Part shown: positions 4,293 to 46,414 of the stretch, in pieces | Layout of the letters: every line of letters starts with the position of its first letter | How positions within the stretch are numbered: position 1 is the stretch's first letter | Origin: a virus | Taxonomy: Duplodnaviria > Caudoviricetes | Length of the DNA: 54,996 nt | Virus record (IMG/VR): IMGVR_UViG_3300037424_001001 | Span: 1-54,996 of that record | Strand: one strand, 5' to 3' | Notes under the pieces: model-generated | Told to the model about the DNA's origin: nothing | Databases searched by the model: none | Seen by the model: the letters and a program-made list of their open reading frames with translations, nothing else | Program-made: the position numbers and the translations under genes

Positions 4293-4691
4293 TTATTCCT
4301 CGAACGGGTGAATTTCCATGATGATGTGCGAATTGCCGGGGCTGATCCCTCCCCACCGGAAGTTCGTTCCGGCGATGATCTTCTTGTGGTCCTCCTTCAG
4401 CACCTTATACTCGACCAGGGCATCACAGGCGAACTTATCGGCAACCGAAAGGATGTTGTTGGTATCAAGCTGCCGGTTGTTTTCCCAAAACAGGCGATAG
4501 GTCAGCAGGTAGGGGGGCGGGAACGGGATCACTAGGCCGCGGTATTGAAGCATCTGCTCCTTGAAGGCGATCTTGGCCTTGTTGAGAACCTGGAAGTGAG
4601 CGGTTCGGTACGCGTTCAGGTTGACCCGGAATTCCTTCTTGGCCGAAACCCATACGACAATCGGAAGTTTCAGGCGAATCACGCTATCCAT
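4293..4691 (-). CDS. rusA: RusA-like Holliday junction resolvase
   Basis: LDTNN...DAL...EDH acidic motifs; size and position in the recombination module. Confidence 0.7.
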   Translation of the reverse strand: MDSVIRLKLPIVVWVSAKKEFRVNLNAYRTAHFQVLNKAKIAFKEQMLQYRGLVIPFPPPYLLTYRLFWENNRQLDTNNILSVADKFACDALVEYKVLKEDHKKIIAGTNFRWGGISPGNSHIIMEIHPFEE

Positions 4692-5113
4692 GCCGCGCCC
4701 CCCTCGTCAGTAAGGACCTGGATGCAGAAGATACCGAAGGCGGGGCACATCAGCGCGCCGGGGAGAAGGGGGGTAATGGCTCCGGCCTGGCTCAAGATTG
4801 CGATCTCCCCCATGGTCAGGCTTCGCGGCTGGCCGTAGTTCTCGCTCTCTTTCCCGGAAAGGATCGATTGCCAGTCCTCCGGGGCCTGCTCACCGTCGAT
4901 TCTGTCACCGACGGTCTTGCATGTGTCGCACAGAACCGGGGGCAACTTCCTTCTCCTTTCGTCGACATCGACCATAACGGTAGCCTCGCAGCCACATTTG
5001 AGGCAATATGTCGGCGCCTCCCGTAGCCAGTCCTTCGCCTTCGATTCCAGTTTCGGCATTGCCTCTACCCTCCCTTTCATAAAAAAGAATCCCTCCGAAT
5101 ATTGCACCTTCAC
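4679..5113 (-). CDS. Hypothetical protein with CxxC pairs
   Basis: Co-oriented ORF; start uncertain. Confidence 0.6.
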   Translation of the reverse strand: MKVQYSEGFFFMKGRVEAMPKLESKAKDWLREAPTYCLKCGCEATVMVDVDERRRKLPPVLCDTCKTVGDRIDGEQAPEDWQSILSGKESENYGQPRSLTMGEIAILSQAGAITPLLPGALMCPAFGIFCIQVLTDEGGAAWIA

Positions 5114-5172: not shown

Positions 5173-5907
5173 TTAGTTGATGGTAAAGGTGGGATTCTCC
5201 CGAAGACAAACTTCTTCATGTTTCAGGATAGCGGCCCGGATCTCCCGCTTCAGGGTCTTCTTGTCGCACCCCATGGCGTCCAGGTCAAACTTGACGCTGG
5301 TCATGATCTCGTCGGTGATCTGTGCCGAGATCGTTGCCGGGTCAGGCGTTCCGACCGTGGCGCCGGTTTCGTCCCTTTCGACGGTGACGATGTAGGGATA
5401 GGGTGTCGTGAAACCGGCCAGCGTCAACGACCCGGCGACATCCCGGACTTCACCGAGAGCTTCGAGAAGGTCGACATACCGCGTCACGGTAAAGACCTCG
5501 ATGTCCTTGGCCTCTCCTTCCGGGGCGAGAGCATCGACGGTTTCCTGCTCGTCGAGATTCAACTGACGCTCCCAGGGGTGGATTTTCTCGATTTCCACCG
5601 TCTCGTAGCTGTCGAGCCGGACCAGGCGTTTCTCGTTGCGGTCCCAGTCGTAGTGCCATTGGCAGTCGACGGGACGAGACTCGCGCCCTTCCCGGATTCT
5701 TGCGGCGAGATCCCCGGCGGTGGCGTCCTTGGCGTCGATCCTGCCCTTGAACTGCTTCTTGATCGTGTCGATCTCCAGTTCCAGATTGGTCTTGTCTTTC
5801 AACTCCTGCGCCAGTTTCTCGCCATAGTGCTGCTTTTCCTCGTTGGTCAAAACCACCAGTAATTCACGATTTTCGATCCCTCGAAGGGCCTGCTTGATGC
5901 CGCTCAT
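5173..5907 (-). CDS. Hypothetical phage protein (244 aa)
   Basis: SD AAGGA; typical codon usage. Confidence 0.75.
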   Translation of the reverse strand: MSGIKQALRGIENRELLVVLTNEEKQHYGEKLAQELKDKTNLELEIDTIKKQFKGRIDAKDATAGDLAARIREGRESRPVDCQWHYDWDRNEKRLVRLDSYETVEIEKIHPWERQLNLDEQETVDALAPEGEAKDIEVFTVTRYVDLLEALGEVRDVAGSLTLAGFTTPYPYIVTVERDETGATVGTPDPATISAQITDEIMTSVKFDLDAMGCDKKTLKREIRAAILKHEEVCLRENPTFTIN

Positions 5908-11027: not shown

Positions 11028-14000
11028 CTAAAACGCGGCGCCGTATCGCTCGACGGCCAGTTTTTGCAGCCGATTCCGTTCGGCGTTGAGCTTGTCGACG
11101 CGGGACTGTTTCTCTTCCCGGGTCAGTTCCCTTGAGCTCCACACCAGGCGAATCCGGTTATTGATGTCCTGCAAACGCTTCTGCACTGCGGCCAGTTGAG
11201 GACGGGCCCGGAGCTTGGCCAGGTTCTCTCTGAGCATCGTGTCGGCGTCCTCCTTGCGTCCCCGCTTGCGATACTCCTTGATGGTGCTGTAGATCTTGGC
11301 CGTTTCGACGGTCATCTCGTAGAACTCGTTGCTGTACTTGGTGCTCCGCGGACTGTCCTCCCGCACAAAACGATTCAGCACAGGAATGTCCTGGACGCTC
11401 CCGGCGGGGATCTCCTCGGCGAGTCCTGTTTTTCTTAAAATAGCATCGGAGGCCATCAGGGCGTAGGTCGAAACCGCCGACGTATAGCCGTAGAGAAGAT
11501 GTCCTAGCCGCTTGGGACTGCGCAGGAAGGCCGGGGCGCTGTCGGGCATACCCTCGGCCAGCAGTCGGAGGCTTTCGCTTGTCCAGGGGTCATACTGGGC
11601 TTCAGGCTCCAACCGTTGGAGCCGTTGCGAGACAATCGGAGAGTCGGAGAAGAACGATTTGTTGGCCACTTCCTCGACGATGGGCTTGAACAATTGCGGA
11701 ATTGGATTGAAGGCGAATGTGTCGAGGAACATTTGCACCATGCGATTGACGAACATATCCCCTTCTTTTTCCCGGATCAGCTCCATCATCCGCTCGGGAA
11801 TGGTGGAGAATATCGCGCCGACTTCAAAGGGCTTGGGCATCCGGAAGTGACCGAAGGGGGTGAAGAAGTGCCAGTAGAGATCCTTGTCCCACTCGGGGAG
11901 GTCTTCGTAATCGGGATTGCCCATATTGATTGCGTAAAGCGCCAGGGTTGCGCCCGTCAGCATCAGCCCCTTGAGGGCAAAAGAGCGGGGGTTTTCCTTG
12001 ACACCGCGGTAAAGCCGGTCGAGGCCCTGAATCCTTGCATTCAAGAAAGGAACCGTCTGCACCATGAAGCGCATGACCGCGTAATCACCTGAGCGGGTGA
12101 AGTTGAGCGTATCCATGGCCTGGTAAGCGGCTTCGCCGATACTGCCCCCGGCTTTCAGGGTCTTGTCGAAGACCACCATGCGGTTTGCCGACTCGGTTGC
12201 GGCGCCGATCTTCTGGTAAAAACGCCATGCCTTGCGGGGGGAGTGCAGGACCGTATCCTTGAAGCGGGTCGACTCCATCGCCTTGACCTGATCGGCGATC
12301 ATATCCCGAGCCCCTTCTTTGCGCACATGATAGTACCCGCCGCCGCCGGCTCCGGCCGCCATCATGGCCATCAGCTTCTCGTCCTTGCCGAGGGCATTGA
12401 TGAATTCCTTGCCAGCATGAAGAAAGGGAATCATGTTGGTGTCCGTGACCACCCATGTCGAGAGGGTATCCCGGAGGAAGTTGGCCATCATGAAGGCCGG
12501 GTTGACGGTGACCGAATGGGTCAGGAGCTTCTTGGCCCCCTTCATCAGGGTCAGCATCCCGTCGGTTGTGGTCGGGCCCATGGCCGTCATGGAGCGCAGG
12601 AGCAGCGGATCATGCACCCGGAAATAGCGGGGCTTGCCGCCGGAGAGGACGGTGATCACGTCCGGGCCCTGCGGCGCCCACCGGGCAAGGAGCTTGCTCC
12701 AGGCGCTCAGTTCGCTGTCCATGAATTCACCGACGCCCAGGTGTCCGATCTCCGCCACGTTGCCCCAGCTTGTTTCGTTGTCGGGGAGAATGCCCGAGGC
12801 TTCGAGGGCCTTGCGGATCATGCTGTTCGGGACCATGACCGGCTTCCACGTTTTGCTGATCTCCTCGATGGCGCCTGTTCCCTCGGCCATGTCGACGATC
12901 CGCTGTGCTGCGATGTTTTTGAAGGAAGAATCGATCAGCTTGGCGGCGTTGAGAAGCATGTTCTCCATGACGTTGATCTTGCCGGCGCCGCCCTTGAGCC
13001 GCATGATTCCGCTTTTCTGGTTGGCGAGGCCGCGTTTCTTGAACGGGCCCTTGACGTTCTCCGCACCCTGGATGTCTTCGACCACCCGGTAAAAAGGCAC
13101 ATAGTCGTTCTTCGACCATTCGGCCCGGGCTTCTCCGTCGATAACGCCCGTTGCTTCGGCCAGGTCGAGGATCTTGTTGTTAAAGGTCTGGTACTCGTCA
13201 AAGATTTGACGGAAGAGCGGGTATTGCTGTTCGAGCGGGAGGAGAGCGTCAATCTGATCCTGGGTGAAATTGTTCTCCCGGCCTTCTTTGATCAGGCGAT
13301 TGGCGCGCACCGCTGCGGCCCATCCTTCCCACAGGCGCAAAAGGTTCCCGTCGGCGTGATTGGTCAGCGGGGCGAAGATGTCGGCAAAGCCTTTCCCGCT
13401 CTTGGCGTTTTCCAGATGGAAAGATCCGTTGCGGAAGAGCAGGGCGCCGCGGAGCATGACCGCGGCCATAACCGAATCGAGGTTTCTCGTCAGTCGGGCG
13501 GCCTTGCTCGGGGAGATTGAGGCGTCCATCACCTGCCCGAAAGTGTCCTCCTCGTAGCTTTCGATGGATGCAAAATCATCCATCATCCCCTGCCGTACCG
13601 CCAGAGGGTCCACCCTGGCCGTGAAGTTGTACAATATCGTTTTGGCGCGCTCCGCCCAGGTCATATCCGCCGAGGGAGTTGCCATGGTGGCGGCCAGGGC
13701 GGCTTCCTGTTCGGGGGTGCCGGTGGCGCGCTTGCGTTGAAAGGTCGGATAAACGCCCGGGGTCATGCCGGATTTTTTGAAGGCGTCAGGAGCCGTGACG
13801 GACATCTCCCTGTAGCTGCCTTCGACGGCGCCGGGTTCGACGTATTGGGAGAACTGCGTCTCCTGCGACCCGAGTACGCCGTCATACCCTTCCTGCTCCG
13901 CCTCCCGCTTGAAGGCTTCGATAGCACCTTCCGGCGTCGCGGCCCCCGAAAGGTCAGTGCCGACCCATCGCTGCCCGTTGAAGATAAGAAATCCGCCGTC

Positions 14001-17000
14001 CTCCATCATCTCCTCATAGCCGGAGTAGCTGGCGCTGCGCTCTTCCTGCGGGATGTCACGCCACGCCACGGCGCGGAGCGCGATGGACCCACCACCAGGT
14101 GTCCCGAGAACCACGTCCTCAAACTCAACGCTGTTCGCCGCGATCTCGTCGAGGACTTCCTGCTTAGTGTAAACCCCCTTGGCATCGAGTCCCGGGAGAA
14201 TGGTGGCGATTTCGTCGTCAGTGACCCCGTTGTTTTTCAGCATATTCTTGAGCGCAGGAGCAAGGATCTTCCCGCCGACCTTGTTCCGCACAACCTCTTC
14301 GAGCTTTGAGTAGAAGGCTTGCGGGGAGGAAAGCGGTCCACGCTGTTCCGTGACATTGCCAGGACCATACGGCCGCCGGCCGGACACCGGACCGCCTCCG
14401 CCGAGGGTGCGTTTCCCCCGGGCGATCATCGCCACCAGATCGGCGTCGGTGTATTTCCATGCGGTGAAGCCGTTCTTGACCAGCCACGTCTTGATTGCCT
14501 CGACGGCGCGCTGGATCAGCCTCGGGCGCTCGTTACGCTCGGCCACCCGGGCAAGGACTTCCTCCGCAGCCTTGAGGCGCTGCAGCTTGTCGGTCAGGTC
14601 GAACTTGTAATCCTTGGCGACTTCCTGCATTCGGGCCGGGAAGGCCAGCGCCACTTGATTGAGTACCGGGATAATGTCGGCGCCCAACAGGGACCGGGGG
14701 CCGATATGACCGTACCCTTCGTGGAAGACGGCGCGCTGCAGATCTCCGGCAGAAGAGAACTGGTCGGCCACTAGGTAAATGTCGCGGCCGGTTGTCTCGT
14801 CCAGCAGTGCCTTGATTGCCTGCTCCCCGTTCATGGTCCCGTTCATGGCGGCCGCCTTCAGGTGCGGGGGCAGCCCTTCGGTATTCGGCACCACATGGAA
14901 GGAGATCGAGGAGGGGAACGCCTGAACCGGGCGGGCAATGGCCTTTTCTGCGGCAGCAATCGACATGCCGGGACCGGTGGCGCCGCGAGAGAAGGTTGCA
15001 CCAGGGCCTTCGCGCAAAGACTCAATCCCTGATGGGACCTCCGACTTGATCGGCATGACGTAGCCGACGACGGAATCTTTCGAGAAAATAGCGAGGGGGT
15101 TGTCTTTCCCTCCGTCATTCGTCTGCTTAAATGTCGCATCAGGGTACAGGTTCAAGATCAGGTCGTAATATTTGGCGTCAATGGGAGAGCCCTTGTCAAA
15201 CCAGATCCTTTTTTGCGTGTCGTTTTCAATAAAACCAATGACCTTGATGCTTTCCGTCGGCGAATAGTTTTTGGGGAAAAACTCCATGTCGATGTCGGAG
15301 ATAGGTTGACGCAACTGCTCTTCGAGTTTTGCCGGAGGCTTCCCTTCCAGCAGGTAATGGCCGTTGGAAAAAGCGGTCTTGCCGTTCATCGTGCCACGGA
15401 AAAGGGTGCGCGATCCGGGCATATTGGTGTTATTCGATTTTGTAACCTGAGCCCACTTGACGGGTTTGGCCTTGTATTTCAGGATTGACAGGCCGTCCTC
15501 TGCCGTCCTGCCCTCGTCGGGGTCCGCCGGGCGGCGATCTTGTTGCGAAAGGACAGAGATGTGCGCATCAGACTCCGGGATCTCGGGTTCTTTCTTTTCT
15601 TTCACCACAACTTCGGGGGCGTCAAACTCCCGGTCGTCATAGATCCGCATCCCCTGATCGTCCATGATCTCGTTGTAGGGGATAGCAACTTGGCCCCTCT
15701 CGTCGGAGGCCATGACGAACCATCCCGCGCTCGCCCAGCGATGGCCGGAAACGGTGAAGGTGGTATCTCCCCACACCACGTCGGTATCGACCGGGGCGCC
15801 GTTGCGCAACCAGGCCGGGGGCGGTACGGGGTTGGCTTCCATGTCAGAGGTGATGTCATGCACCAGTTCCTTCATGGCTTCCAGTTCGGTCTGCCGGCCA
15901 AAGGTCTCTTTGGAGATCTCATCCAGGCGCAGAAGGGAAGACTCAAACTCGGAGACTTTGCCCCGGGTACGATCTGTTGAACCGACAACTCCGCGGATAG
16001 CTGCCTCAAGGCTGGCGAGGCTCGACTTGTGTGACTGGACTTCGTGACTTCCGTTCGCGCCCTGGATTTCGGCTTTCAGTATTGCCTCTTCGCCGAGTTT
16101 GGGAAAAGAAGCCCTTACGGGGAAACCGTAGATGGTCCCGACTGCGACATTGTTGTCACCGATACGGACGTTTTTTTGGATAAACTTTGCAATGGCCTCG
16201 TCGGCATCCTTGCGGGTGGCGTAGTTCTTCCCGTTGATGTTGGCGGTAAAGGTCAGCATCGCCGTTTTGATCTTGGCGAGAATACCGTTCTCTCCGTCCA
16301 TAATTGCAAGACGCTCTTTCCCGCTGGCAATATCCCGGGTCAGGGTCTTGATCGTGGACTTGGCCTCAACGACGGCCTGTGTGTGCATCCGCTCCCGGCG
16401 CTGCAGGTGCTCGACCTTCTTCCGGGCTTTTTCGAGCAAGAGGATTCGCGGATCACCGGCGGCGTTGGCGAAGGTGTCGAGAATGTCGTTTTCCTCCTCG
16501 GCGGCTCCGTCGCCTTCGATCACTCGAATGTCATCGTTGGCGGTGAGGAATGCCTTGATGAATTTTGACTTGATGGCGAGAATTTGCCAACGGCGCCCGT
16601 CGAGACGATCGGTCAGGTAGCGGTACTCGAGAACGGTATTCCATTGGTTCCCCTGGCGGTGGCCGCGGCCGTTGCGCTGTTCCAGGTCCCCGGGCATGTA
16701 GGGGGCGTCCATGTGGTGCATGGCCCGGAGGTTCTTCTGCATATTGACCCCGACTCCGAGAGACTGGGTACTGCCGAAGACAATGCGGATCTCGGCGCGG
16801 TTCATCTTCTCGGAGATCTCCGCCCGCTTCTGTTTGCTGGTGCTGCCGTCGACTACTGCAATCTGTTCCCGGGGGATACCGGCCTGCACCAGGCGCTCAA
16901 CCATATCGTGAACGGTGGAGAAGACCTTGTAGCTCTGCGAGGTTTTATTCCCCGCAGAACCGACCGACCGTGTTGCCGTTCTTCCGAGTCCGCTGTTGGT

Positions 17001-20000
17001 AAAGACCGCCTGACAAGCGAGGTCATTGGAATGGTAGACCTCAAGAAGGTTCTTGATGGCGCGGGACGCCTTGCTGCTCGGTTCGTCAGGGACCTTCCCC
17101 TCTTGCCCGGCCAGTTTCTCGCCGTTGAGCAACCGGACATCGAAGGAGGCTTTGCCGGCCAGCCCTTCGGTGATGATCGGCGACTCCGGCCCGCCGGCGG
17201 CCATGGTCGCCTTGCGCTCTCTGCCGGACATCCCCCGCCAGGTTCTCGCGTAGCCCTGCAGGGTTTTGAATTCGGCGAGTTGCTGCACCGACATGTCGGC
17301 GTTGTCGGCAATCACCTTTTTGTACGGGCGGTCCATGGCGTTTTCGGAACGGCCGTTTTCCAGTTCGATTCGTTCTGATTCCGTCAGGGTCTTGTCGGAC
17401 AGGACCTTGCCGTTCTCGGTTTTGCGCGGGACCATTTCCGGCATGTTCTCGGAAAAGACCACATCCATGTACTGGCCGAACATGCGGCGCAGTTCCGGGA
17501 CGTTGATGAACGAGGCCAGGCGAACCACCGCTTCATATTCCGCTGCGGCGTTCAGTTCGACATCCTGAACCTCGGCGGCGAAGGAGCCAAACCATCCATC
17601 CCAACTATTCAGGCCGACATCCCGCATTTCATCTTCCATCAGGTAGCGCATCTGGTGGAAAACCTCGACGAGGGTATTGGTGATCGGCGTACCAGTGAAG
17701 GTATGGACGTTGCCGCCGCCGTTGTTGGCCCGGACATAGCTCGTCAGGAAGCGCAGCGCGATAGATCGGGAAGAGGTCTGTGCGTTGAGGCCCTTCATTC
17801 GCATCTTCGTGGAGAAGGGCGGCTTTTTGAATTCATGGGCCTCGTCGACGATGATCATGTCGATGCCCAACTCCTCGAAGGGGATGGCCGTCTCGCGGCT
17901 CGACCGCTGTGACGCCTTGTCGATGGAGGTGATAATCGCATTGCGGACCCGGACAAGATCCTTGGCCGTTGGGGACCGGAGCTTTTTCAGTTCCTCCGGA
18001 TCGTTGAGCATACTGTCGTCCCAGTGAACGCCATCCTCTTCGGCGGCTTCCCGGGCTTCCTGCTCCAGAAGATCAAGCTCTTCCTGTGCCATGGCCTGCA
18101 GGGTTTCCCGGGTCAGGGACAGGCGATCGATCAGCGAGTGCGGCATAACAATCAGGTCCCAGTCGTCATTGGCGATCTGCCGGAGTTTCACGTCAATGCT
18201 GTCGGGGGACAGGTTGTCGATGTAGAGAAGGGCCGCCCCGGGGTACATGGCCTGAATCTCGTTCTTCACCGTGGCGCTGTTGGCGTTGTGCGCTAAAAGA
18301 AGAGGCTTGCGGGCGATACCGTAGCGGCGAGACTCAATGGCCAGCCCGCCGATCGTGAAGGTCTTGCCGGTTCCGACCTGGTGCGCGTACAGGCCCTTGC
18401 GGGTGACGAGTCCCCGCCAGATAGCGTCGGCCTGGTGCTTGCGCATGTTCAGCGGTCCGTTCCCGAATTCAAGCGCCATCCCCTCGAACTTCAAAAAGGA
18501 CCCGTCATATTCCGGCTTTGCCCAGGCGTTACGGGCCTCGTTGTATTCCCGCTCCAGAACAATGCGCCGCTCGGGATCGGACCATACCCAGGTCTGAAAC
18601 TCTTCGCGGATTTTGGCGATACGCTCGTTGACCTCGGCGGTGGCTGTTTCGTCAACCACCATGTTCTTATTTTCGTCAGGGTGACGAATGGTCATCACCT
18701 GATTGCCGAGGGCGTAGGAAACGAGGCTCTTGAATTTGGCGAACTTGCTGCCGAATCCGGCTTCCGCTTCTGCCCGGTAGTTGAAGTCCGACGACAGGCG
18801 CAGCTTCCAGCGGCCGGCGATGAATTCGACCTTGACCTTTGCTGTGTCCTCTTTCGACAGGTTGAGCATGTGGCCAACGTAGGTGGCATAGACCTCGGGC
18901 GGGGTCCAGGTGGCGCCGAACTGCACCTCGATCTTGTGGTAGGGGATATCCTGCGGGATGACGCGCTTCAGGGCCTCGACGTTGCGGACCATGTGAGCGT
19001 TGCCGTCCTTGACTGCGGCCTCCGCTTCCCGGAGTTTTTCCCGGACATTGCCGGCAAGATAGAGATCGGTCGGGGTAATGTCGTGATCGATCGTCTCATA
19101 GGCGGCCCCGGATTCAACCAGGGACTTGCGGACTGCATCCTTGTCGGTTTTGGCAAGGGTCGCAATCTGCTCAAGGGTCGGGCTGACCTGCCCGTTACGG
19201 GCAAGGACAAAGGCATCCTCTACGCTCGGGTTGTCCTGGCGGGGCTTCGGTCGCATGGTGCTTTGCGAAAGAATCTTTGCCGGGCGGGTCTTGCCGTCGG
19301 GGCCTTCGATCTCAAGGGCGGCCAGTGCCGGGTAGAAAGGGTCGGTGACCCGCTTCAGGTACTTCATGCCGAAGCTGTCATTGAATCCGCTATGGTTCTT
19401 GGTGAAGGCGTCGTACTGCTTTTTCAACTCCTTCCGTGCGGCGGTGGCCTCTTCGCCGGCGCGCTCGACCTTGATCAGTTCCGCATACGCCTTACGCATG
19501 GCGATCAGGTCGCGCAACTGCGTCTCGCGGTTGGCCGTCTCAGCCTTGCCCTTGACGACGTAGGCCACAACCTGGTGCGCTGGCGCCAGGTGCTCACCGG
19601 AAACAACAAACAGGCCATCCTTGGTTTCGGTCAGCGCGCCCTCGCGGTCGTCGGTATGATTGGCGATGTAGGAGATCTGTTTGGTGCGGACATCCGGCTT
19701 GAAGGCGTCGACGGGAACAACCTCGATCATTTCGTCCAAGCGCGCCCGGATGTTCTGCGGGCGGGTGACGATCAGGCCGGGGCGGGCACTGATGGTGCCG
19801 TGTCCGAAGTCGACGGTGCCGAGAACGTGGCGGGGGTTTTCGTGGTAATACTTGTTGAGGAGAACAGGCGTCCCGCTCGGGGTGTTGAAGGGTTCGGATC
19901 CAATCCAGCTATCCGAAACGATGCCGAGGGGCTGGTCACGCTTGCGCAGGATGATGATGTCGGTCACTACGGCGGTGCCGGCGTATTCCTTGAACGCTCC

Positions 20001-23000
20001 AGAGGGGAGACGAAAGGCGGCGATCAGTTCGCCCTTCTGCGCCATGGCGCGCCGGGAGGACTTATCCACCTTGTCCATGGTGCCGTGCGAAGTGATACCG
20101 ATCACGATACCGCCAGTGCGCACCTGGTCGAGGGACTTGAGAAAGAAATAATCGTGCAGAACGGGATTGAGTTTGTTGTAACGGCGATCCGCCGGCCGCA
20201 TGGAGTCAAAGGGCCAGTTGCCGATTACCACGTCATAGAAGTTGTCCGGGGTTTTGGAAGTCTCATATCCCTTGATCGAGATATTGGCGCCGGGATAAAG
20301 CATCTTGGCCATGCTGCCGGTCAACTCGTCAAGCTCGATGCCGGTCAACTGGCTGCGGGTCTTCAGGTCGAGGGGCATCATGCCGAAGAAGTTACCGATA
20401 CCCATGGCCGGCTCGAGAACCTTGCCGCCGGTGAAGCCCATCCGGGCGATCATCGACCACATGGCCAGAACGGTTGGCGGATCGGTGTAGTGGGCGTTCA
20501 GGATGGACCGCTGCGCGCTCTCCCATTCGGACTGGCCGAGGCTGTCACGGAGCCAAGTGTCACGCGCTTCCCATCCATCCTTGGGCGAAGGGCGGGACCA
20601 GGACCCGTTAAAGAGCTCCTGCCCGAAAGATCCCCATCCGGTATAGCCGGCAAGGGTCGCCTGCTCTTCGGCGGTCGGGTCGCGGTATTCGTCTCGAAGT
20701 TGGTGGTAGAGTTCGATGGCGTCGCGGTTCTTGTTGAATCGGGCAACAGGAGAACCGCCGACGATCTGCTCCGGGTCGGCTACATGGAATAGACTTCCTC
20801 TTCCGACTGATCCGGGCCGAGCATCAACCAGTTCGCTTCCGCCTGCTCCTGTGCGTCCGTCAGGGGCATTCCCCCCTTCTGCAGGCTGTCGCTCTCCCGC
20901 CACATTTGTTCCTGGAGGACGAACGCCAGTTTTTCCGTCAGGAGTTGGCGTTGCAAATCCCGGTACATTTCCGTCCGGTTTGCTTTCCAGTCCGACAGAA
21001 TCCGGCGATGCAGGTCCTTGTTGTGAAGCAGGTCCTCGTCCGCCTTCATCTCCCTGAACTGGCTGTCCACCCATTCCCGGAACTTCTTGTCCGGCGGCAC
21101 CTTCGTCATTCGTTCGGGCTTCGTCATGGCTCCCCTCCTTGATGTCCAGTATATCCTTGATGTCAATGGCGTCAACTACCGACTCCGGGTCCATCCCGGC
21201 ACGGTCCAATCCCGGCCAGTTACGGGCGGCTGAGTACCAGGCTTTGAAGTAGGGACTCAACTTCTCCGCAGCATCGCCGAGGTGGCTTGCCATGGCTTTG
21301 CTGAATTTCACAAAAGACCGGGCCCCGGCTTCAACGTGATAAACGGCAAGCTCGGCGCCGAGCATCAGGAGTTCAGGATCGACGCCGGCCGTCAGGGTAC
21401 TGACTTTGGCCCGGAGTTTTGCGGCCAGTTCTTCGGCCCGGTCCTTGGTCACCAGTTTGTTGTCGGTACCGTACCCTTGAGGCAGGGCCTTGGCGGGGGC
21501 GTTCGCTGCCGGGGCTGAAACCGCGGTCTGATCCGTGCCTACGCTTGGCAGGACGGGCGATTGTGCAGGCGCTTCCGGTTTTGCTACCACATTCGAGGGG
21601 GCAGCGCCGGGCATCTTGGTCCCGCCTCCGTTGCTGGTGTAGAAGGCGTCGGAGTAGGTTTTAAGCTGCTCGTCGCTGACGTTGACCGCTGCGGCATGGG
21701 CGGCGGCGACATCCACCCCTTGGCTGACGGAGTATTTCAACTCGTCGACGGTGGCCTTGCGGTATGCGTCCTTGTAGGCGATGGCAAAGTTTTGGTTATC
21801 GCTTCCGGGGGCAACGGCCTTGAGCTTCCCGTCTTTAGCCAGGCGATCAGCTACCCGTCCAAAGAAGACACCCTTTTCCATGACGGGCTTGGTGTTCGCG
21901 GGGGCAGCTTCGGGGCTTTCCTTGAGGATCTGTTCCGACAGTTCACCGACCGTGAGCGTTCCATCTGCCCACCGGTTCGCGCCTTTGGTGCCATAGGGGT
22001 CTTTCGTGGTGGCCTTGCGATACATGAAGACCATGCCGGAGGCGTTCGGCTTCATGCCAGGCATTCCGCTGGCTTCAGTAATGGTGAGATAGATCCCGCT
22101 ACCGTCAGGACGAAGCAGGGAGATTGAAGCGTCGCCGGGGCCGGAAACACCTGATTGATTGATATTGACCTTGCCGTCCCATGACAAGTGTTTTTTGAGG
22201 GCGTTCAGGAAGGTTTTTGCGTCATTGAGATATTCGCGCTTCGTCTCGCCGTCGTTGTGCCATCCGTCGATATTCTTGACGCCGTAATCGTCGCGCAGGG
22301 TGCGGAGTTCACCTCCAGCCTTGGCCTTCTGTGCCGCAACCTTCGCCTTGTACTTCTCTATCGGCTTGACTACTTCCGGGGCGGAACCTTCTTCTTGTCC
22401 GACTTCGCTTTCTTCTCCAGTTCCGCTTTCAGTTTCTCCGGAGGTGTCTTGTCCAGGCCGAGCCGCTTCAACCGTTTTTCCATCGACATTGCTGATACCC
22501 TCCTTTGCGAGTTTCGCCAGGGCGGTACGGCCGTCGGCCGCCTCGATCACCCTGTCGACGCTATCGTGTGCGCTAAATTCCGTGACGCCGGAATAGATAC
22601 CGATCCCGGGACTACCACCCTTCGGATTATAAATTTCGCTCAATCCCTGTTTCTTGGCGTAGGCATTGATCTTGGCCCCGGTTTTTTCCAGTATACCACG
22701 AAGTTCTGATTCCGTTGAATCGGGGGCGATTACGCCAAACTCGTCGCCGCCTTTCCGGAAAACCTGCACCCCGGGGAAGTTCTCCTTCATGTCGTCGTTG
22801 ATGATCTCGGCGATGGCGCGCACATGAGCATCCGCCTTGGCATTGGCGCCCATGTGCTTATTCAGCCCGCCGAGGTTACGCAGGTCGATGTCAGCATAGG
22901 CGAAGGCCCGGCCGCTCTCCTTGTGGGCGAACCAGGCACGATCAAGGGAAGGCCGGTGATAGTCGACCTTCTGCAGGCCGGTCACCGGATCAGGCTGCCG

Positions 23001-25358
23001 GACCAGGGTGCGGCGCTCGTTCATCAGGTCGCTGTGCAGTTCGCTGTCTTCGGCAATCCCTCCAGCTTTGAGCTTATCAGCAAGGGCTTTTTCGTGGATC
23101 TCCGCCTCGCTCATAAAGGGGGCGGCCGGTTTCTTCCCTTCCGGGGCAAAGATCTTGCGCGCATGTTCCCGGGCGAAGGTATCGATCGTGGTCTTGTCGC
23201 CGTACTTGGCATCCACCGCGGCGATGGAGCCAAGCGCGGCCACCTTGTCCTGAACGAAAGCAACCTGGTCGGAGGTTAGTCCCGGTACTCCGGTCCCTCC
23301 CGTCTCTCCTCCGCCGGGCTTTCCTTCGGGAATTCCCTTCGCTGCATCCCCGGACACCCGCACTCCGGCATCATCATTCCCTCGTCCTGCTTCTTGGGAA
23401 AGTCCCGCATCTGGCCCGACATTGGTTTCATTGGTGGCTGCTCCTTCTGTGAAAGGGACGTTCTGATCTACGGGTTTGGTCGGGTCGTAAGTCTTCCTCC
23501 ATGCCTTAAAGTCTTCCATCGGCATTTCGGTGACGGCACCGACCCGGCTTTCCCCGGTCTTATCGTAATTGGAAAGATAGGTCATGCGGGCGCCCTGCTC
23601 AAACTTCGGACCCATGACAACCTTGTGCTCGTCAAACTTCCCTGTTTTCGGGTCGATCTGGTCGACGATAAAAACGGACTCGGCCGACGAAGCACCAGGG
23701 GTCAAAAAGACATCGAGCTTGGACGGCTTGCCTCCTTCAATCCCGCCCTTGGTCCCCCTGATATACCCGTAATGGGCGGTCATCTTCGTCTGCCACTTCT
23801 TCCCGCCGGTTTCCTTGTCCTTGCGGATAGATCCGATCGGGTTCTCGATGGAGATGTCGAGGCCCTGAACCTTGTGGTGACCGAGCTTGGCGTTCTTGCC
23901 GATCTGATCATTGGTCGGGTCGGGGAGATCGTTCACCGGGGAAGAGGCTGCGGTGTGCGCGGCCAGGTCCATTTCGAGGTCGGCGATTTCCTGCTCCTCG
24001 TCGACGACGGTCGGCTGTTCCTGCTCGACGGGGGTCTCCTGAGCGACCTCTTCCGTCATCCCCTGGGCCTGAACGGGGGCGACCGGAACCGGCTGCACCG
24101 CGGCAACAGCTTCCTCGATCACGCTGGCGGCAACCTCCCGGGGCGCCGATTGTTCGCCGGCCGGTTCGGGGTCGGTCTGAATCTCGGTCAAGGGTCTCCC
24201 GGTGGCAAGGTCCGTCTCGCCTTCGAAAGGAGCGAAGTTTCCGTTGGCTCCGCGCATCTTGCGCAGCATGGCCCGGGTCTGGCTTTGCTCCTGCTCGGCG
24301 GCGATCCGCTTCTTCTCGGCGTCAGGAAGGGCTTCCCATTCGGCCTGTAGCGCCTTGGCTTCGGCACTCCCGCCGACCTTGTTGATCATGACGCTGCCGC
24401 CGCCCATGAGCGTTGACTGCAGGACGGTGACCAGGGCGGTGTCCACCTGATCCTGGAAATGGGCATCGCTCACCCAGTAATCGACGGTGCTGCCGATCCG
24501 CTGATTCAAGGGGGCGTCGTTTTCGGTAAAGAAAGCGTCGGCGCCGTTCTGCAGAGCCGTGGCGATATGTTCGGTGACCAACTCCGCGCCGTAGTATTCC
24601 GCCAGTTTTCGAACCAGCCGCTTCGTCCCCGGCTTGAAGAGCTCGAAGAGTTTCCCCATCGGGACCCTTTCGGTCAATCCCTCGACGGCGCCCTGCCACA
24701 CGGCGTTGACGGCCGACTGGTTGACCGACTTCCCGTCGGCCCGGTTCTCTCCGTATTTCTGCCCTCCGGTCATCGTCCCCATGATGCCGAGGCCGAGGGC
24801 CGGGTTGACGGCACTGATCGTCAGGGTAGGGACCATCTGCATCATCGACTCGGCGGCCATGGCGGAGATCTCACCGCCCTTGGTCTTGAACGGGTTCTCC
24901 TTCTCCACCAGATCGTGAATCATCTTGCCTTCGGCGTAGAGATCCTTCCCCTTCTGGATATAGGGGGACTGGATGCCCGGGTCGCGGCGCCACTCCTCCG
25001 GGCCCGTCTGCGCCAACTTCTGATCCATCTCGCCGAGAAACTGTGCGGCACCGCCGAGGGACTGTTCCATGGCGGAGATCCCCCGGGCGCCGTAGGTCTT
25101 CGCCAAGTTCGGCACGTCGTTCAGGGCAAACTCAGGCCAGTCGTTGACCAGAACGTCGGCGGCTTTGGCGAAGAATCCCGGGCCTTCCGGTTCCGGATCC
25201 AGGCCCATCTCGGGCGCCGGGGCTCTTTTCGGAAGGGACAGCCCGGTCGCCGGGTATTCGGCCGACAGAGCGTCGAGTTCGTCAAGGGAGAATTCTTTCG
25301 TCTTTGCCGCGGGGATCTTGCTTTCGATGGCGTCGAGGTCGTCACTGGTAAAAGGCAT
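11028..25358 (-). CDS. Giant polyvalent (DarB-like) virion protein, 4776 aa
   Basis: PPase-like domain (~23500-23890); GGDEF motif (22737-22751); N6-MTase motifs EPAMGIG and GNWPF; SNF2 motifs HQVGTGKT, DEAH (17835-17846) and QRNGR; HEGYGH (14706-14723); LPD38-like C-terminus; follows the ejection-protein genes. Confidence 0.9.
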   Translation of the reverse strand: MPFTSDDLDAIESKIPAAKTKEFSLDELDALSAEYPATGLSLPKRAPAPEMGLDPEPEGPGFFAKAADVLVNDWPEFALNDVPNLAKTYGARGISAMEQSLGGAAQFLGEMDQKLAQTGPEEWRRDPGIQSPYIQKGKDLYAEGKMIHDLVEKENPFKTKGGEISAMAAESMMQMVPTLTISAVNPALGLGIMGTMTGGQKYGENRADGKSVNQSAVNAVWQGAVEGLTERVPMGKLFELFKPGTKRLVRKLAEYYGAELVTEHIATALQNGADAFFTENDAPLNQRIGSTVDYWVSDAHFQDQVDTALVTVLQSTLMGGGSVMINKVGGSAEAKALQAEWEALPDAEKKRIAAEQEQSQTRAMLRKMRGANGNFAPFEGETDLATGRPLTEIQTDPEPAGEQSAPREVAASVIEEAVAAVQPVPVAPVQAQGMTEEVAQETPVEQEQPTVVDEEQEIADLEMDLAAHTAASSPVNDLPDPTNDQIGKNAKLGHHKVQGLDISIENPIGSIRKDKETGGKKWQTKMTAHYGYIRGTKGGIEGGKPSKLDVFLTPGASSAESVFIVDQIDPKTGKFDEHKVVMGPKFEQGARMTYLSNYDKTGESRVGAVTEMPMEDFKAWRKTYDPTKPVDQNVPFTEGAATNETNVGPDAGLSQEAGRGNDDAGVRVSGDAAKGIPEGKPGGGETGGTGVPGLTSDQVAFVQDKVAALGSIAAVDAKYGDKTTIDTFAREHARKIFAPEGKKPAAPFMSEAEIHEKALADKLKAGGIAEDSELHSDLMNERRTLVRQPDPVTGLQKVDYHRPSLDRAWFAHKESGRAFAYADIDLRNLGGLNKHMGANAKADAHVRAIAEIINDDMKENFPGVQVFRKGGDEFGVIAPDSTESELRGILEKTGAKINAYAKKQGLSEIYNPKGGSPGIGIYSGVTEFSAHDSVDRVIEAADGRTALAKLAKEGISNVDGKTVEAARPGQDTSGETESGTGEESEVGQEEGSAPEVVKPIEKYKAKVAAQKAKAGGELRTLRDDYGVKNIDGWHNDGETKREYLNDAKTFLNALKKHLSWDGKVNINQSGVSGPGDASISLLRPDGSGIYLTITEASGMPGMKPNASGMVFMYRKATTKDPYGTKGANRWADGTLTVGELSEQILKESPEAAPANTKPVMEKGVFFGRVADRLAKDGKLKAVAPGSDNQNFAIAYKDAYRKATVDELKYSVSQGVDVAAAHAAAVNVSDEQLKTYSDAFYTSNGGGTKMPGAAPSNVVAKPEAPAQSPVLPSVGTDQTAVSAPAANAPAKALPQGYGTDNKLVTKDRAEELAAKLRAKVSTLTAGVDPELLMLGAELAVYHVEAGARSFVKFSKAMASHLGDAAEKLSPYFKAWYSAARNWPGLDRAGMDPESVVDAIDIKDILDIKEGSHDEARTNDEGAAGQEVPGMGGQPVQGDEGGRGPASQQGPASPDSVGLESKPDGNVPGFATPTPDGKTGVRPPGTNVAGERQPAEGGNAPDGRTGAGGSELVDARPGSVGRGSLFHVADPEQIVGGSPVARFNKNRDAIELYHQLRDEYRDPTAEEQATLAGYTGWGSFGQELFNGSWSRPSPKDGWEARDTWLRDSLGQSEWESAQRSILNAHYTDPPTVLAMWSMIARMGFTGGKVLEPAMGIGNFFGMMPLDLKTRSQLTGIELDELTGSMAKMLYPGANISIKGYETSKTPDNFYDVVIGNWPFDSMRPADRRYNKLNPVLHDYFFLKSLDQVRTGGIVIGITSHGTMDKVDKSSRRAMAQKGELIAAFRLPSGAFKEYAGTAVVTDIIILRKRDQPLGIVSDSWIGSEPFNTPSGTPVLLNKYYHENPRHVLGTVDFGHGTISARPGLIVTRPQNIRARLDEMIEVVPVDAFKPDVRTKQISYIANHTDDREGALTETKDGLFVVSGEHLAPAHQVVAYVVKGKAETANRETQLRDLIAMRKAYAELIKVERAGEEATAARKELKKQYDAFTKNHSGFNDSFGMKYLKRVTDPFYPALAALEIEGPDGKTRPAKILSQSTMRPKPRQDNPSVEDAFVLARNGQVSPTLEQIATLAKTDKDAVRKSLVESGAAYETIDHDITPTDLYLAGNVREKLREAEAAVKDGNAHMVRNVEALKRVIPQDIPYHKIEVQFGATWTPPEVYATYVGHMLNLSKEDTAKVKVEFIAGRWKLRLSSDFNYRAEAEAGFGSKFAKFKSLVSYALGNQVMTIRHPDENKNMVVDETATAEVNERIAKIREEFQTWVWSDPERRIVLEREYNEARNAWAKPEYDGSFLKFEGMALEFGNGPLNMRKHQADAIWRGLVTRKGLYAHQVGTGKTFTIGGLAIESRRYGIARKPLLLAHNANSATVKNEIQAMYPGAALLYIDNLSPDSIDVKLRQIANDDWDLIVMPHSLIDRLSLTRETLQAMAQEELDLLEQEAREAAEEDGVHWDDSMLNDPEELKKLRSPTAKDLVRVRNAIITSIDKASQRSSRETAIPFEELGIDMIIVDEAHEFKKPPFSTKMRMKGLNAQTSSRSIALRFLTSYVRANNGGGNVHTFTGTPITNTLVEVFHQMRYLMEDEMRDVGLNSWDGWFGSFAAEVQDVELNAAAEYEAVVRLASFINVPELRRMFGQYMDVVFSENMPEMVPRKTENGKVLSDKTLTESERIELENGRSENAMDRPYKKVIADNADMSVQQLAEFKTLQGYARTWRGMSGRERKATMAAGGPESPIITEGLAGKASFDVRLLNGEKLAGQEGKVPDEPSSKASRAIKNLLEVYHSNDLACQAVFTNSGLGRTATRSVGSAGNKTSQSYKVFSTVHDMVERLVQAGIPREQIAVVDGSTSKQKRAEISEKMNRAEIRIVFGSTQSLGVGVNMQKNLRAMHHMDAPYMPGDLEQRNGRGHRQGNQWNTVLEYRYLTDRLDGRRWQILAIKSKFIKAFLTANDDIRVIEGDGAAEEENDILDTFANAAGDPRILLLEKARKKVEHLQRRERMHTQAVVEAKSTIKTLTRDIASGKERLAIMDGENGILAKIKTAMLTFTANINGKNYATRKDADEAIAKFIQKNVRIGDNNVAVGTIYGFPVRASFPKLGEEAILKAEIQGANGSHEVQSHKSSLASLEAAIRGVVGSTDRTRGKVSEFESSLLRLDEISKETFGRQTELEAMKELVHDITSDMEANPVPPPAWLRNGAPVDTDVVWGDTTFTVSGHRWASAGWFVMASDERGQVAIPYNEIMDDQGMRIYDDREFDAPEVVVKEKKEPEIPESDAHISVLSQQDRRPADPDEGRTAEDGLSILKYKAKPVKWAQVTKSNNTNMPGSRTLFRGTMNGKTAFSNGHYLLEGKPPAKLEEQLRQPISDIDMEFFPKNYSPTESIKVIGFIENDTQKRIWFDKGSPIDAKYYDLILNLYPDATFKQTNDGGKDNPLAIFSKDSVVGYVMPIKSEVPSGIESLREGPGATFSRGATGPGMSIAAAEKAIARPVQAFPSSISFHVVPNTEGLPPHLKAAAMNGTMNGEQAIKALLDETTGRDIYLVADQFSSAGDLQRAVFHEGYGHIGPRSLLGADIIPVLNQVALAFPARMQEVAKDYKFDLTDKLQRLKAAEEVLARVAERNERPRLIQRAVEAIKTWLVKNGFTAWKYTDADLVAMIARGKRTLGGGGPVSGRRPYGPGNVTEQRGPLSSPQAFYSKLEEVVRNKVGGKILAPALKNMLKNNGVTDDEIATILPGLDAKGVYTKQEVLDEIAANSVEFEDVVLGTPGGGSIALRAVAWRDIPQEERSASYSGYEEMMEDGGFLIFNGQRWVGTDLSGAATPEGAIEAFKREAEQEGYDGVLGSQETQFSQYVEPGAVEGSYREMSVTAPDAFKKSGMTPGVYPTFQRKRATGTPEQEAALAATMATPSADMTWAERAKTILYNFTARVDPLAVRQGMMDDFASIESYEEDTFGQVMDASISPSKAARLTRNLDSVMAAVMLRGALLFRNGSFHLENAKSGKGFADIFAPLTNHADGNLLRLWEGWAAAVRANRLIKEGRENNFTQDQIDALLPLEQQYPLFRQIFDEYQTFNNKILDLAEATGVIDGEARAEWSKNDYVPFYRVVEDIQGAENVKGPFKKRGLANQKSGIMRLKGGAGKINVMENMLLNAAKLIDSSFKNIAAQRIVDMAEGTGAIEEISKTWKPVMVPNSMIRKALEASGILPDNETSWGNVAEIGHLGVGEFMDSELSAWSKLLARWAPQGPDVITVLSGGKPRYFRVHDPLLLRSMTAMGPTTTDGMLTLMKGAKKLLTHSVTVNPAFMMANFLRDTLSTWVVTDTNMIPFLHAGKEFINALGKDEKLMAMMAAGAGGGGYYHVRKEGARDMIADQVKAMESTRFKDTVLHSPRKAWRFYQKIGAATESANRMVVFDKTLKAGGSIGEAAYQAMDTLNFTRSGDYAVMRFMVQTVPFLNARIQGLDRLYRGVKENPRSFALKGLMLTGATLALYAINMGNPDYEDLPEWDKDLYWHFFTPFGHFRMPKPFEVGAIFSTIPERMMELIREKEGDMFVNRMVQMFLDTFAFNPIPQLFKPIVEEVANKSFFSDSPIVSQRLQRLEPEAQYDPWTSESLRLLAEGMPDSAPAFLRSPKRLGHLLYGYTSAVSTYALMASDAILRKTGLAEEIPAGSVQDIPVLNRFVREDSPRSTKYSNEFYEMTVETAKIYSTIKEYRKRGRKEDADTMLRENLAKLRARPQLAAVQKRLQDINNRIRLVWSSRELTREEKQSRVDKLNAERNRLQKLAVERYGAAF
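20780..21127 (-). CDS. Nested +1-frame ORF (115 aa, helical) inside the giant gene
   Basis: SD AAGGAGGGGAG before the ATG. The sequence is protein-like while the host frame is a Gly/Pro-rich linker. Confidence 0.7.
   Translation of the reverse strand: MTKPERMTKVPPDKKFREWVDSQFREMKADEDLLHNKDLHRRILSDWKANRTEMYRDLQRQLLTEKLAFVLQEQMWRESDSLQKGGMPLTDAQEQAEANWLMLGPDQSEEEVYSM
22370..22489 (-). CDS. Nested +1-frame ORF (39 aa, Lys-rich) after the GGDEF domain
   Basis: SD AAGGAGG; MSMEKRLKRLGLDKTPPEKLKAELEKKAKSDKKKVPPRK. Confidence 0.5.
   Translation of the reverse strand: MSMEKRLKRLGLDKTPPEKLKAELEKKAKSDKKKVPPRK
23276..23431 (-). CDS. Nested +1-frame ORF (51 aa) after the PPase-like domain
   Basis: SD AAGGAG; MKPMSGQMRDFPKKQDEGMMMPECGCPGMQRREFPKESPAEERREGPEYRD. 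Confidence 0.4.
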   Translation of the reverse strand: MKPMSGQMRDFPKKQDEGMMMPECGCPGMQRREFPKESPAEERREGPEYRD

Positions 25359-45475: not shown

Positions 45476-46414
45476 ATGACGAAGGTAGGGGCTTACTACA
45501 ACGAAATCGACCCACAGGCGGCCGCCTGGCTGCGGGAGTTGATCCGCTGCGGGCTGATCGCCGACGGCGAGGTGGACGAGAGGAGCATCGAGGATGTCGT
45601 ACCAACTGAGCTTGTGGGATTCACCCAGTGCCATTTCTTCGCCGGAATCGGAGGTTGGTCCCTTGCCCTGCGACGTGCTGGCTGGGAGGACTCCCGCCCC
45701 GTCTGGACTGGTTCCTGCCCCTGCCAACCTTTCAGCGCGGCAGGCAAGGGAGGCGGGTTTGCTGACGAGCGGCACCTATGGCCCGCTTTCTATCACCTTA
45801 TCGAGCAGCACCGCCCTGCAGTCGTCTTTGGAGAGCAGGTTGCGGCAAAGGCTGTCGAGCCGTGGATCGACCTTGTACAAGCTGACATGGAAGCCCTGGG
45901 TTATGCCTTCGGGTGTGTTGCGTTCCCGTCTGCGGGGGTCGGTGCTCCGCACATCCGAGACCGAGCGTACTGGGTGGCCGACGCCGAAGGCTTCCGAGGC
46001 GGGTCCGGACTACGCGATAGCCGACCGGCCGACCAGCGGCGGGATATCTCTGCCGACGGCGGCGGCGTTGTCGGGATGGCCGACGCCGATGGCGGGGACC
46101 CCCGCGCAGAAAGGGTACAACGAAGCGGGGAATACGGATGCGCCTCGAAAGACAGTGGCGCTCTGCGGGGCGCAGATAAAGGGTCACGGTTTGGCGCTGG
46201 ACCCCGAATGGAGCGGCCCGGCCCGACTCTTAGCATCTGGCGAGATGCTGACTGGCTCTTCTGCCGGGATGGAAAGTGGAGGCCAGTTGAGTCCGGCACA
46301 TTCCCGCTGGCTCATGGGATACCCGCCCGAGTGGGACGCCTGCGCGGCTACGGCAATGCCATCAACGTTGAAGCGGCGAGAGTCTTCATCGAAGCCTACC
46401 AAATGGGTTGTTAA
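45476..46414 (+). CDS. C5 cytosine DNA methyltransferase, alpha-like chain
   Basis: FFAGIGG (I), GSCPCQPFS (IV), EQV (VI), PHIRDR (VIII) and GYGNAI (X). Confidence 0.9.

Follow-up and report, generated by a model that had tools for sequence, protein, structure and literature searches.

Small genes apparently nested in the +1 frame over linkers of a giant DarB-like polyvalent-protein gene in a tailed phage

The window analyzed here, by which we mean the whole virus record IMGVR_UViG_3300037424_001001 of 54,996 bases (estimated completeness, 93%), comes from a tailed phage with a genome of about 55 kb and carries a giant gene for a DarB-like polyvalent protein. An earlier note on this DNA had pointed out three small open reading frames (ORFs), referred to here as ORF1, ORF2, and ORF3, in the +1 frame of the giant gene. 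Comparison with related loci indicates that the giant gene holds at least two real nested small genes. On the comparative evidence, ORF3 is a genuine, conserved, and separately started gene; ORF2 is more thinly shown to be a conserved nested gene; and ORF1 is a candidate only. We consider it highly probable that the giant gene carries separately started small +1 genes over its linkers and that these linkers are the -1 reading of older small genes. The linkers themselves appear to be younger read-through frames over the small genes.

All three ORFs lie on the minus strand at an offset of +1 within the giant gene, which spans 25358 to 11028, and each ATG is preceded by AAGGAG or AAGGAGG, a Shine-Dalgarno (SD) sequence (motif starts at 23446, 22505, and 21140), as the earlier note had described. 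The spacing from motif to ATG is 9 nucleotides for ORF1 and ORF2 and 6 nucleotides, counted after AAGGAGG, for ORF3. No other ATG within the giant gene is led by AAGGAG. Among 300 shufflings of synonymous codons, AAGGAG-led +1 ORFs of at least 39 amino acids numbered 0.5 on average, and the probability of finding at least three was 0.013. The ORFs overlay giant residues 643 to 695, 957 to 997, and 1411 to 1527, and the methylase homology begins at residue 1527, in agreement with the earlier placement of the three sites after a pyrophosphatase-like domain, after the GGDEF domain, and before the methylase. The overlaid linkers had also been said to read like off-frame sequence, and both their residue composition and their G+C content at third codon positions (GC3) confirm this. 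Between 77 and 85% of the linker residues are G, P, A, E, D, R, S, T, or Q, compared to 59% in the whole giant protein. The linker GC3 is 0.33 to 0.45 in the giant frame, compared to 0.74 for the whole giant gene, and 0.77 to 0.80 in the +1 frame.

Codon usage was examined with a model trained on the remainder of the giant gene, and log-likelihoods were compared between frames. Over giant residues 1421 to 1520, the +1 frame was coding-like (-3.76 to -4.00) and the giant frame was off-frame-like (-4.25 to -4.49). The GC contents at the three giant-frame codon positions of this stretch were approximately 0.8, 0.65, and 0.3, compared to 0.62, 0.43, and 0.74 in the whole gene. The score restricted to synonymous usage was +0.17 in the +1 frame and -0.32 in the giant frame for ORF3, +0.17 and -0.15 for ORF2, and +0.04 and -0.17 for ORF1. 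When 39-codon windows were compared, the +1 frame beat the giant frame in 4.6% of 4,737, and these were located at the three ORFs and at two short spots. These two extra spots of better alternative-frame synonymous usage are at 21632 to 21587 and 15641 to 15593 (minus strand), and the first has no SD-led ATG.

ORF3 encodes 115 amino acids from its ATG, within a stop-to-stop frame of 131 codons. Searched against 1.84 billion representative proteins, it matched 109 relatives at an E value of ≤1e-3, including 40 at ≤1e-10. The relatives are 68 to 275 amino acids long, save two long proteins that were matched in 7 to 9 short stretches, and none of the 109 is a giant protein carrying the domain in frame. 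Among 25 loci fetched via the methylase and the upstream domain, 19 had an ORF3 homologue, in every case in the +1 frame immediately ahead of the methylase domain and without a stop in the giant frame over its length. Further loci were obtained via the ORF3 family (20 from bacterial genomes and 31 viral, several of them from contigs already in the set), together with the GenBank phage USP_25. With the window counted, 72 loci have an ORF3 homologue, and in 65 of them it is nested. Clustering at 90% identity leaves 47 clusters, 42 of them nested, and clustering at 50% leaves 26, of which 22 are nested; the loci are related, so cluster counts are not counts of independent events. The chance of an open +1 frame over the length of ORF3 in ordinary coding sequence of the same giants was 0.13 on average (median, 0.095).

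The start of ORF3 is conserved as well. An ATG lies 16 to 60 codons (mostly 30 to 42) before a conserved Trp in all 46 clusters analyzed, one cluster without this anchor having been excluded. An SD-like core precedes the ATG in 38 of the 46 cluster representatives, compared to 12.5% of random +1 spans. In seven clusters, a +1-frame stop codon falls 1 to 4 codons before the conserved ATG, indicating that ribosomes cannot enter there by shifting from the giant frame. The earlier note had staked its proposal in part on conservation of the SD sequence, ATG, and open frame in homologous linkers; for ORF3, the ATG and open frame are kept, as is the SD sequence in most clusters. A sigma-70-like promoter match upstream of ORF3 was also considered. 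One such match was found near ORF3, compared to 0.7 expected in 3.3 kb, and a comparable match was present in only 2 of 40 relatives. A conserved internal ORF3 promoter was therefore rejected, and the match is probably not a general feature.

Dual-frame comparison of homologues, which the earlier note had suggested as a check, revealed purifying selection in the ORF3 frame, and no such selection was detectable in the linker frame. Across 18 sequences and 91 ungapped columns, with two near-duplicates dropped, amino acid identity reached 0.43 when read in the frame of ORF3, compared to 0.31 in that of the giant and 0.34 in the remaining, unused frame. Substitutions were then scored in 99 pairs at 55 to 97% identity, drawn from all pairs among the 42 nested clusters. 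The number of accepted changes per possible change was 0.364 for those silent only in ORF3, 0.154 for those silent only in the giant frame, and 0.191 for those silent in neither; silence in the giant frame alone thus gave a change no better odds of acceptance than an effect on both proteins. Apart from keeping the giant frame open, selection is confined to the ORF3 frame. The purifying selection holds down to 25 to 50% identity, with start and frame kept. ORF3 is wholly inside a same-strand gene, has its own conserved ribosome binding site and start, and is under purifying selection at the protein level. Seventeen variants between 20700 and 23500 were found on contigs of near-identical strains that came from further sediment metagenome runs; at their depth of about 3 to 6, an individual call may be erroneous. 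Of the 11 variants outside the ORFs, 10 were silent in the giant frame. Inside ORF3, none of five was silent in the giant frame and three of five were silent in ORF3.

The product of ORF3 is predicted to be a helical protein of about 110 amino acids. AlphaFold2, run on a 76-sequence ORF3 alignment, returned five helices with a mean predicted local distance difference test score (pLDDT) of 82.6 and a predicted template modeling score (pTM) of 0.70. P1 Ulx and DdrA were tried as relatives of ORF3 and rejected, with an hhalign probability of 0.1% each. For the ORF3 homologue P0003, the ESM Atlas listed weak TnpV-like rows under the bar of the service (feature score, 0.82; TM, 0.57 to 0.61), and no match to Pfam TnpV was found among the 76 aligned members.

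The position of ORF3 relative to the methylase is fixed. In all 42 nested clusters, the methylase homology starts at query residue 1 or 2, in the frame of the giant, and the distance from the ORF3 stop to the methylase homology has a median of 54 nucleotides (-18 to 270). The nearest upstream domain varies, being of the type found at residues 995 to 1240 of the window's giant in 17 clusters, the helical "UP" domain in 13, a distant InPase in 2, and none recognized in 10. The fixed adjacency to the methylase together with the varying upstream domain indicates that ORF3 is tied to the DarB-like module and not to the preceding domain.

ORF3 homologues and similarly placed ORFs were also found in distant and cultured phages. 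Among six distant loci with about 40% methylase identity, five (L022 to L026, but not L021) have a +1 ORF of 89 to 115 amino acids at the same place, with a GC3 of 0.7 to 0.8 compared to 0.3 in the giant frame; these ORFs match the ORF3 profile weakly (E, 0.002 to 0.03) in the same motif register. The methylase domain was present in 91 GenBank phage records, of which four were inspected. In Bcep22, PEp14, and SopranoGao, an SD-led +1 ORF of 105 to 108 amino acids ends just before the methylase, beneath a single annotated giant coding sequence; Atu_ph08 has no corresponding nested +1 ORF. The ORFs of Erwinia phage PEp14 and Klebsiella phage SopranoGao match the ORF3 profile at an E value of about 1e-6 (for a nominal 1,000 sequences), and that of Burkholderia phage Bcep22 was below significance. 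In Bcep22 (AY349011), the unannotated 107-amino-acid +1 ORF lies in gp75 between the UP and methylase domains (L081:854-1177) behind the SD sequence AAGGAGG. Its GC3 is 0.88 to 0.90, compared to 0.40 for the giant frame over the same stretch and 0.94 over the methylase region. Pseudomonas phages USP_25 and USP_18 have clear ORF3 homologues inside the "hypothetical protein" coding sequence vBPaeMUSP25_31. The homologues in USP_18/25, PEp14, and SopranoGao are without annotation.

ORF3 relatives outside nesting take several forms. Stand-alone copies are present in L031 (Rhodoblastus) and in L035 (a Pseudomonas metagenome-assembled genome), the latter beside umuC-like and resolvase genes; an identification of the preceding gene in L035 as hsdR was dropped, as it had no Pfam match. 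L047 has a frameshifted copy. In the Psychrobacter loci L034, L036, L038, and L041, the ORF3 domain is the C terminus of a protein of about 390 amino acids, in frame behind a UP-like domain, and the library proteins P0034, P0047, and P0069 have the same in-frame UP-ORF3 fusion. In these four Psychrobacter genomes, the fusion (L036:3137-4309, plus strand, in one of them) stands between an MmeI-type restriction-modification enzyme and MotA/MotB-like genes, which we take to be Zorya-like, and the region looks like a defense island. Another protein, P0011 (161 amino acids), consists of the N-terminal part of ORF3 followed by the giant-frame linker and runs into the methylase start; it either represents a naturally occurring fusion or results from misassembly. 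The nonnested forms indicate that the ORF3 protein can work alone, and the UP-ORF3 fusions hint at a link between ORF3 and the UP domain.

For ORF2, a single comparator genome was available. The relatives in the first locus sets contain no GGDEF domain, and no close relatives of giant residues 560 to 1010 were found in viral contigs or metagenome contigs. A protein search identified P0113, a giant of 4,388 amino acids with 63% identity over the GGDEF region, encoded on contig L080. After the GGDEF domain, L080 has AAGGAGG, an ATG, and then a 78-amino-acid +1 ORF whose first 35 residues are 74% identical to those of ORF2, so that the SD sequence, ATG, and frame are also kept in this comparison. 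In this 35-codon stretch, the two copies share 26 residues in the +1 frame, compared to 17 in the giant frame. They differ at 31 bases, of which 7, 8, and 16 fall on the first, second, and third codon positions of ORF2; 15 changes are silent only in ORF2, and 4 are silent only in the giant frame. The sole strain variant inside ORF2 is silent in ORF2 and alters the linker. The window's ORF2 ends at 39 amino acids, without the second half of the L080 form. A ribbon-helix-helix fold for the 78-amino-acid homologue was considered and dropped, having no Pfam or PDB support.

The support for ORF1 is limited to its own codon signature. Its SD sequence, ATG, and frame have no counterpart, the features being seen in the window only, and none of the 17 strain variants falls inside it. 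Other nested candidates were seen in relatives. In the L080 giant, each of three linkers with low GC3 contains a nested SD-led +1 ORF, namely, the ORF2 homologue and ORFs of 67 amino acids (4573-4776, plus strand) and 125 amino acids (5179-5556, plus strand); the latter two match no Pfam family and show no similarity to ORF1 or ORF3. Further candidates are present in L005, L007, L019, L030, L040, and L056. Some SD-led +1 ORFs of relatives are by-products of a conserved T-D-G motif in the giant frame. Two similar basic +1 ORFs starting with MA(R/S)KPLKPSK are found in Ala/Gln/Pro-rich linkers of two giants (L005:5225-5398 and L027:9643-9753, plus strand). Their GC3 is 0.91 to 0.92 in the +1 frame compared to 0.37 to 0.50 in the giant frame; both frames are alike between the two, and selection cannot be assigned to either.

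Several observations weigh against nested genes, in addition to the relatedness of the loci. Open length alone is uninformative, as the +1 frame of the giant is open elsewhere for 118 and 152 codons, compared to 131 at ORF3. AAGGAG within the giant is mostly plain Lys-Glu coding, with 8 of 10 occurrences in phase 0. A linker rich in codons starting with G forces G at the +1 third position, so that composition accounts for part of the +1 signal of the short ORFs; the low GC3 of the giant frame (0.33 to 0.45) alone does not depend on amino acid composition. The window's ORF3 matches no Pfam, PHROG, NCBIfam, or PDB-sequence family, and among the 76 aligned members no family was matched by more than two. 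Five ORF3 clusters are not nested, none of them with a downstream methylase; three of them, including two Psychrobacter clusters, carry the in-frame UP-ORF3 fusion, and evolution may therefore have run in either direction. For ORF2, the comparison draws on a single genome and a single strain variant, and the window's copy is half as long as that of the comparator. No homologue of ORF1 was found among proteins of 28 to 90 amino acids or in the loci, and no SD-led +1 ORF follows InPase in 17 relatives or in L080. No RNA run containing the stretch was listed, and RNA reads would in any case not tell the two frames apart.

Some of these points favor the possibility that the ORFs are chance products of purine-rich Gly/Glu linker coding, with the +1 frame open by luck, AAGGAG arising from Lys-Glu or Glu-Gly, and the ATG arising from His-Asp, Asp-Gly, or Asn-Glu codon pairs. 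The long open stretches, the in-phase Lys-Glu motifs, the isolation of ORF1, and the SD-led ORFs produced by the T-D-G motif are all in line with this explanation. Moreover, if ORF3 is taken as real, two more ORFs compared to the 0.5 expected is not significant (Poisson estimate, about 0.09). However, normal giant-frame GC3 is kept in the linker at giant residues 400 to 470 and in the post-InPase linkers of the 17 relatives, indicating that low GC3 is not a general linker property. The family, nesting, start, and selection data refute chance for ORF3, and the frame-specific conservation refutes it for ORF2. As an account of the ORFs, chance is improbable.

A quite improbable explanation, applying mainly to ORF1 and perhaps to ORF2, is that the internal SD-like motifs and rare codons are pause signals for domain folding, with the ATGs and open +1 frames being incidental. 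Pausing at internal SD-like sequences is a published idea. The three sites are exactly at domain boundaries, and giant-frame codons that are rare in the gene occur there (GGA, 16% of Gly; ACT, 6% of Thr; CAA, 22% of Gln). However, pausing leaves the conserved +1 protein sequence, the conserved ATG spacing, and the confident fold unexplained, and other linkers lack the signature.

It is very unlikely that the nested ORFs are remnants of genes engulfed by the fusion, recognizable as such but in decay and no longer made or needed. The shortening of ORF2 relative to its L080 homologue, the frameshifted copy in L047, and the low-complexity-like character of ORF1 in both frames would fit decay. ORF3, however, is not a relic, because it has been under purifying selection across 42 embedded clusters with its own SD sequence and ATG kept, and the strain variants spare its protein in three of five cases and the linker never. 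ORF2 is likewise not a relic, because its +1 frame is conserved in the one comparable genome, with the changes concentrated at third codon positions. The earlier note had offered, as one option, relics of an operon fused into a polyprotein by reading through the small genes. The fusion part of this suggestion fits ORF3 and ORF2, since the giant-frame linker has atypical codon usage and no detectable amino acid constraint and since codon usage and constraint lie in the small-gene frame; the relic part does not.

The last alternative, that ORF3 is part of the giant protein through paired sequencing or mutational frameshifts or through programmed ribosomal frameshifting, yielding an N-terminal protein ending in ORF3 or ORF3 joined to the methylase, can draw on the in-frame UP-ORF3 fusions and on P0011 but is extremely unlikely, as the offset is identical in 65 loci from many samples (so that it is no sequencing error), no family match is a giant with the domain in frame, the +1 stops before the ATG in seven clusters leave no room for entry, the ATG and SD sequence are conserved, and no slippery heptamer was seen by eye near either end of ORF3 in the window.

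For nested genes under linkers that are the -1 reading of older genes, the following course may be proposed. Ribosomes translating an upstream gene would have come to run on through the small gene in its -1 frame, where the G/C-rich third positions of the small gene serve as first codon positions, so that stop codons, which start with T, would be rare. The read-through would have joined upstream effector domains to the DarB-like protein. At present, ribosomes would start at the nested SD sequence and ATG inside the long late mRNA and yield separate small proteins, while ribosomes on the giant would read the same DNA one base off and make a featureless tether rich in G, P, A, D, E, and R.

The earlier note had also suggested that the small products are cognate inhibitors or chaperones that keep toxic domains inactive in the producing cell. 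The position of ORF3 directly next to the methylase domain in all 42 nested clusters points toward this idea. Because of this fixed adjacency, our best guess is that the ORF3 product is a partner of the adjoining DarB-like module and may act as a chaperone or packaging helper or as a brake in the producing cell. A broader and rather doubtful possibility is that polyvalent giants are built by frame-shifted read-through and that each nested protein is the cognate helper of the abutting domain, either a chaperone for ejection competence or an inhibitor until injection. The giant would then be a compressed operon of effector-partner pairs, one per linker. This possibility is raised by the three nested ORFs found here, by the three different ones in L080, and by the methylase-linked nested ORF in Lessievirus-, Pavtokvirus-, and Lastavirus-type giants.

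The giant gene is a single open frame of 4,776 codons and is the final gene of the virion-structure module. Upstream of it are genes for terminase, portal, major head protein, tail fiber, and internal virion protein, and downstream are those for endolysin and RecT. InPase, GGDEF, and ResIII/SNF2/Helicase_C domains (the last at residues 2304 to 2903 by Pfam) and the DarB-like methylase are found within this one ORF of a virus record, the PHROG match to "DarB-like antirestriction" scored 1,880 bits, and LPD38 was matched with an E value of 5.6e-41 and 141 bits (cutoff, 27). By its domain content, the giant is thus classed as a polyvalent protein in the sense of Iyer et al. 2017 (PMC5512222). Two Pfam accessions newer than the release scanned, PF28554 and PF28555, are precomputed on the giant (P0001), and some of its "unknown" domains may therefore already have names. 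An 803-codon frame is open antisense to the methylase region (18381 to 20792, plus strand) and is probably a by-product of the high GC3 of the coding strand. Besides the methylase within the giant, the window has a separate gene for a 312-amino-acid DNA methyltransferase (45476 to 46414, plus strand; phrog_363; E, 1e-85).

Table 1. Positions of the giant gene, its domains, and the nested ORFs with their signals in the window
Feature	Position	Strand	Remarks
ORF1, 51 aa, +1 frame, led by GAAGGAG	23276..23431	-	Candidate; own features only
ORF2, 39 aa, nested +1 gene	22370..22489	-	Shortened copy of 78-aa nested gene of related phage
ORF3, 115 aa, nested +1 gene, conserved family	20780..21127	-	End coordinate includes stop
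ORF2 SD AAGGAGG	22499..22505	-	9 nt before ATG; kept as AAGGAGG in L080
ORF3 SD AAGGAGG	21134..21140	-	6 nt before ATG; K-E-G in giant frame
Sigma-70-like promoter match TTGACG-16-TATACT	21148..21175	-	10/12; ends 21 nt before ORF3 ATG
Giant polyvalent-protein gene	11028..25358	-	4,776-aa ORF; Pfam and PHROG matches
InPase domain, aa 488-622	23493..23897	-	Pfam E 4e-37
GGDEF domain, aa 790-952	22503..22991	-	Pfam E 3e-08
Helical "UP" domain, aa 1290-1406	21141..21491	-	Without Pfam family; elsewhere fused in frame to ORF3 domain
DarB-like methylase/helicase module	15825..20780	-	Homology begins at stop base of ORF3
LPD38 domain, aa 4482-4661, polyvalent-protein marker	11376..11915	-	Pfam E 6e-41

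The embedded spanin genes Rz/Rz1 of lambda-like phages are a known case of a small gene inside a larger one, with both products made from one late mRNA. As in Rz/Rz1, the small gene here is wholly within a larger same-strand gene, in the +1 frame, with its own ribosome binding site and start. In contrast to Rz/Rz1, the larger gene here spans 14 kb and encodes a polyvalent protein of the virion module, the overlapped host stretch is a disordered tether without sequence constraint, and several different nested genes are possible per giant. ORF3 is also predicted to be a soluble helical protein, not a lipoprotein, and has no homology to Rz1. The embedded class of Rz1 is described for phage JC1, and in the accessible part of that paper the word "embedded" is used for Rz1 only (PMC9144972). 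According to the same part, these phages have no known homologues of the Dar accessory proteins, and its Table 6 reports the JC1 homologue of the giant, gp69, to be virion associated by mass spectrometry, with 51 unique peptides.

In its many-effector architecture and virion-module location, the giant resembles polyvalent proteins such as P1 DarB and the Bcep22-like giants; nested genes are absent from the available portion of that account, in which the words "overlap," "frameshift," and "linker" do not occur (Iyer et al. 2017, PMC5512222). As in viral overprinting, judging by the available portions of two accounts (PMC8227390, PMC3494269), both frames would be translated, one with typical usage and a folded product and the other atypical and disordered. 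In the usual case, the new frame gives a new accessory protein. Here, in contrast, the apparently newer frame is the tether joining two older proteins, and the older frame survives as the nested gene. In the literature on polyvalent proteins, embedded or overprinted phage genes, and DarB, no such nested gene was found to be described (Gill et al. 2011 on Bcep22 was not covered), and the genome section of the paper on USP_18/25 does not mention the giant.

In several studied phage groups, among them the Bcep22-like, PEp14-like, and Lastavirus phages and Pseudomonas phages USP_18/25, between a fifth and a quarter of the genome is occupied by a DarB-like giant, which is annotated as a single gene. 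Real genes in such phage giants are missed by gene callers that do not allow nesting. Assuming that proteomes were searched against annotated proteins only, a nested product would probably have been missed, and knockouts or truncations of the giant would have struck two genes together. The giant may also be a natural example of a disordered linker that arose from out-of-frame reading of an existing gene and joined two proteins, with the gene between them retained. A conserved protein concealed in the tether ahead of the methylase would mean that the antirestriction module of these phages has an unrecognized component.

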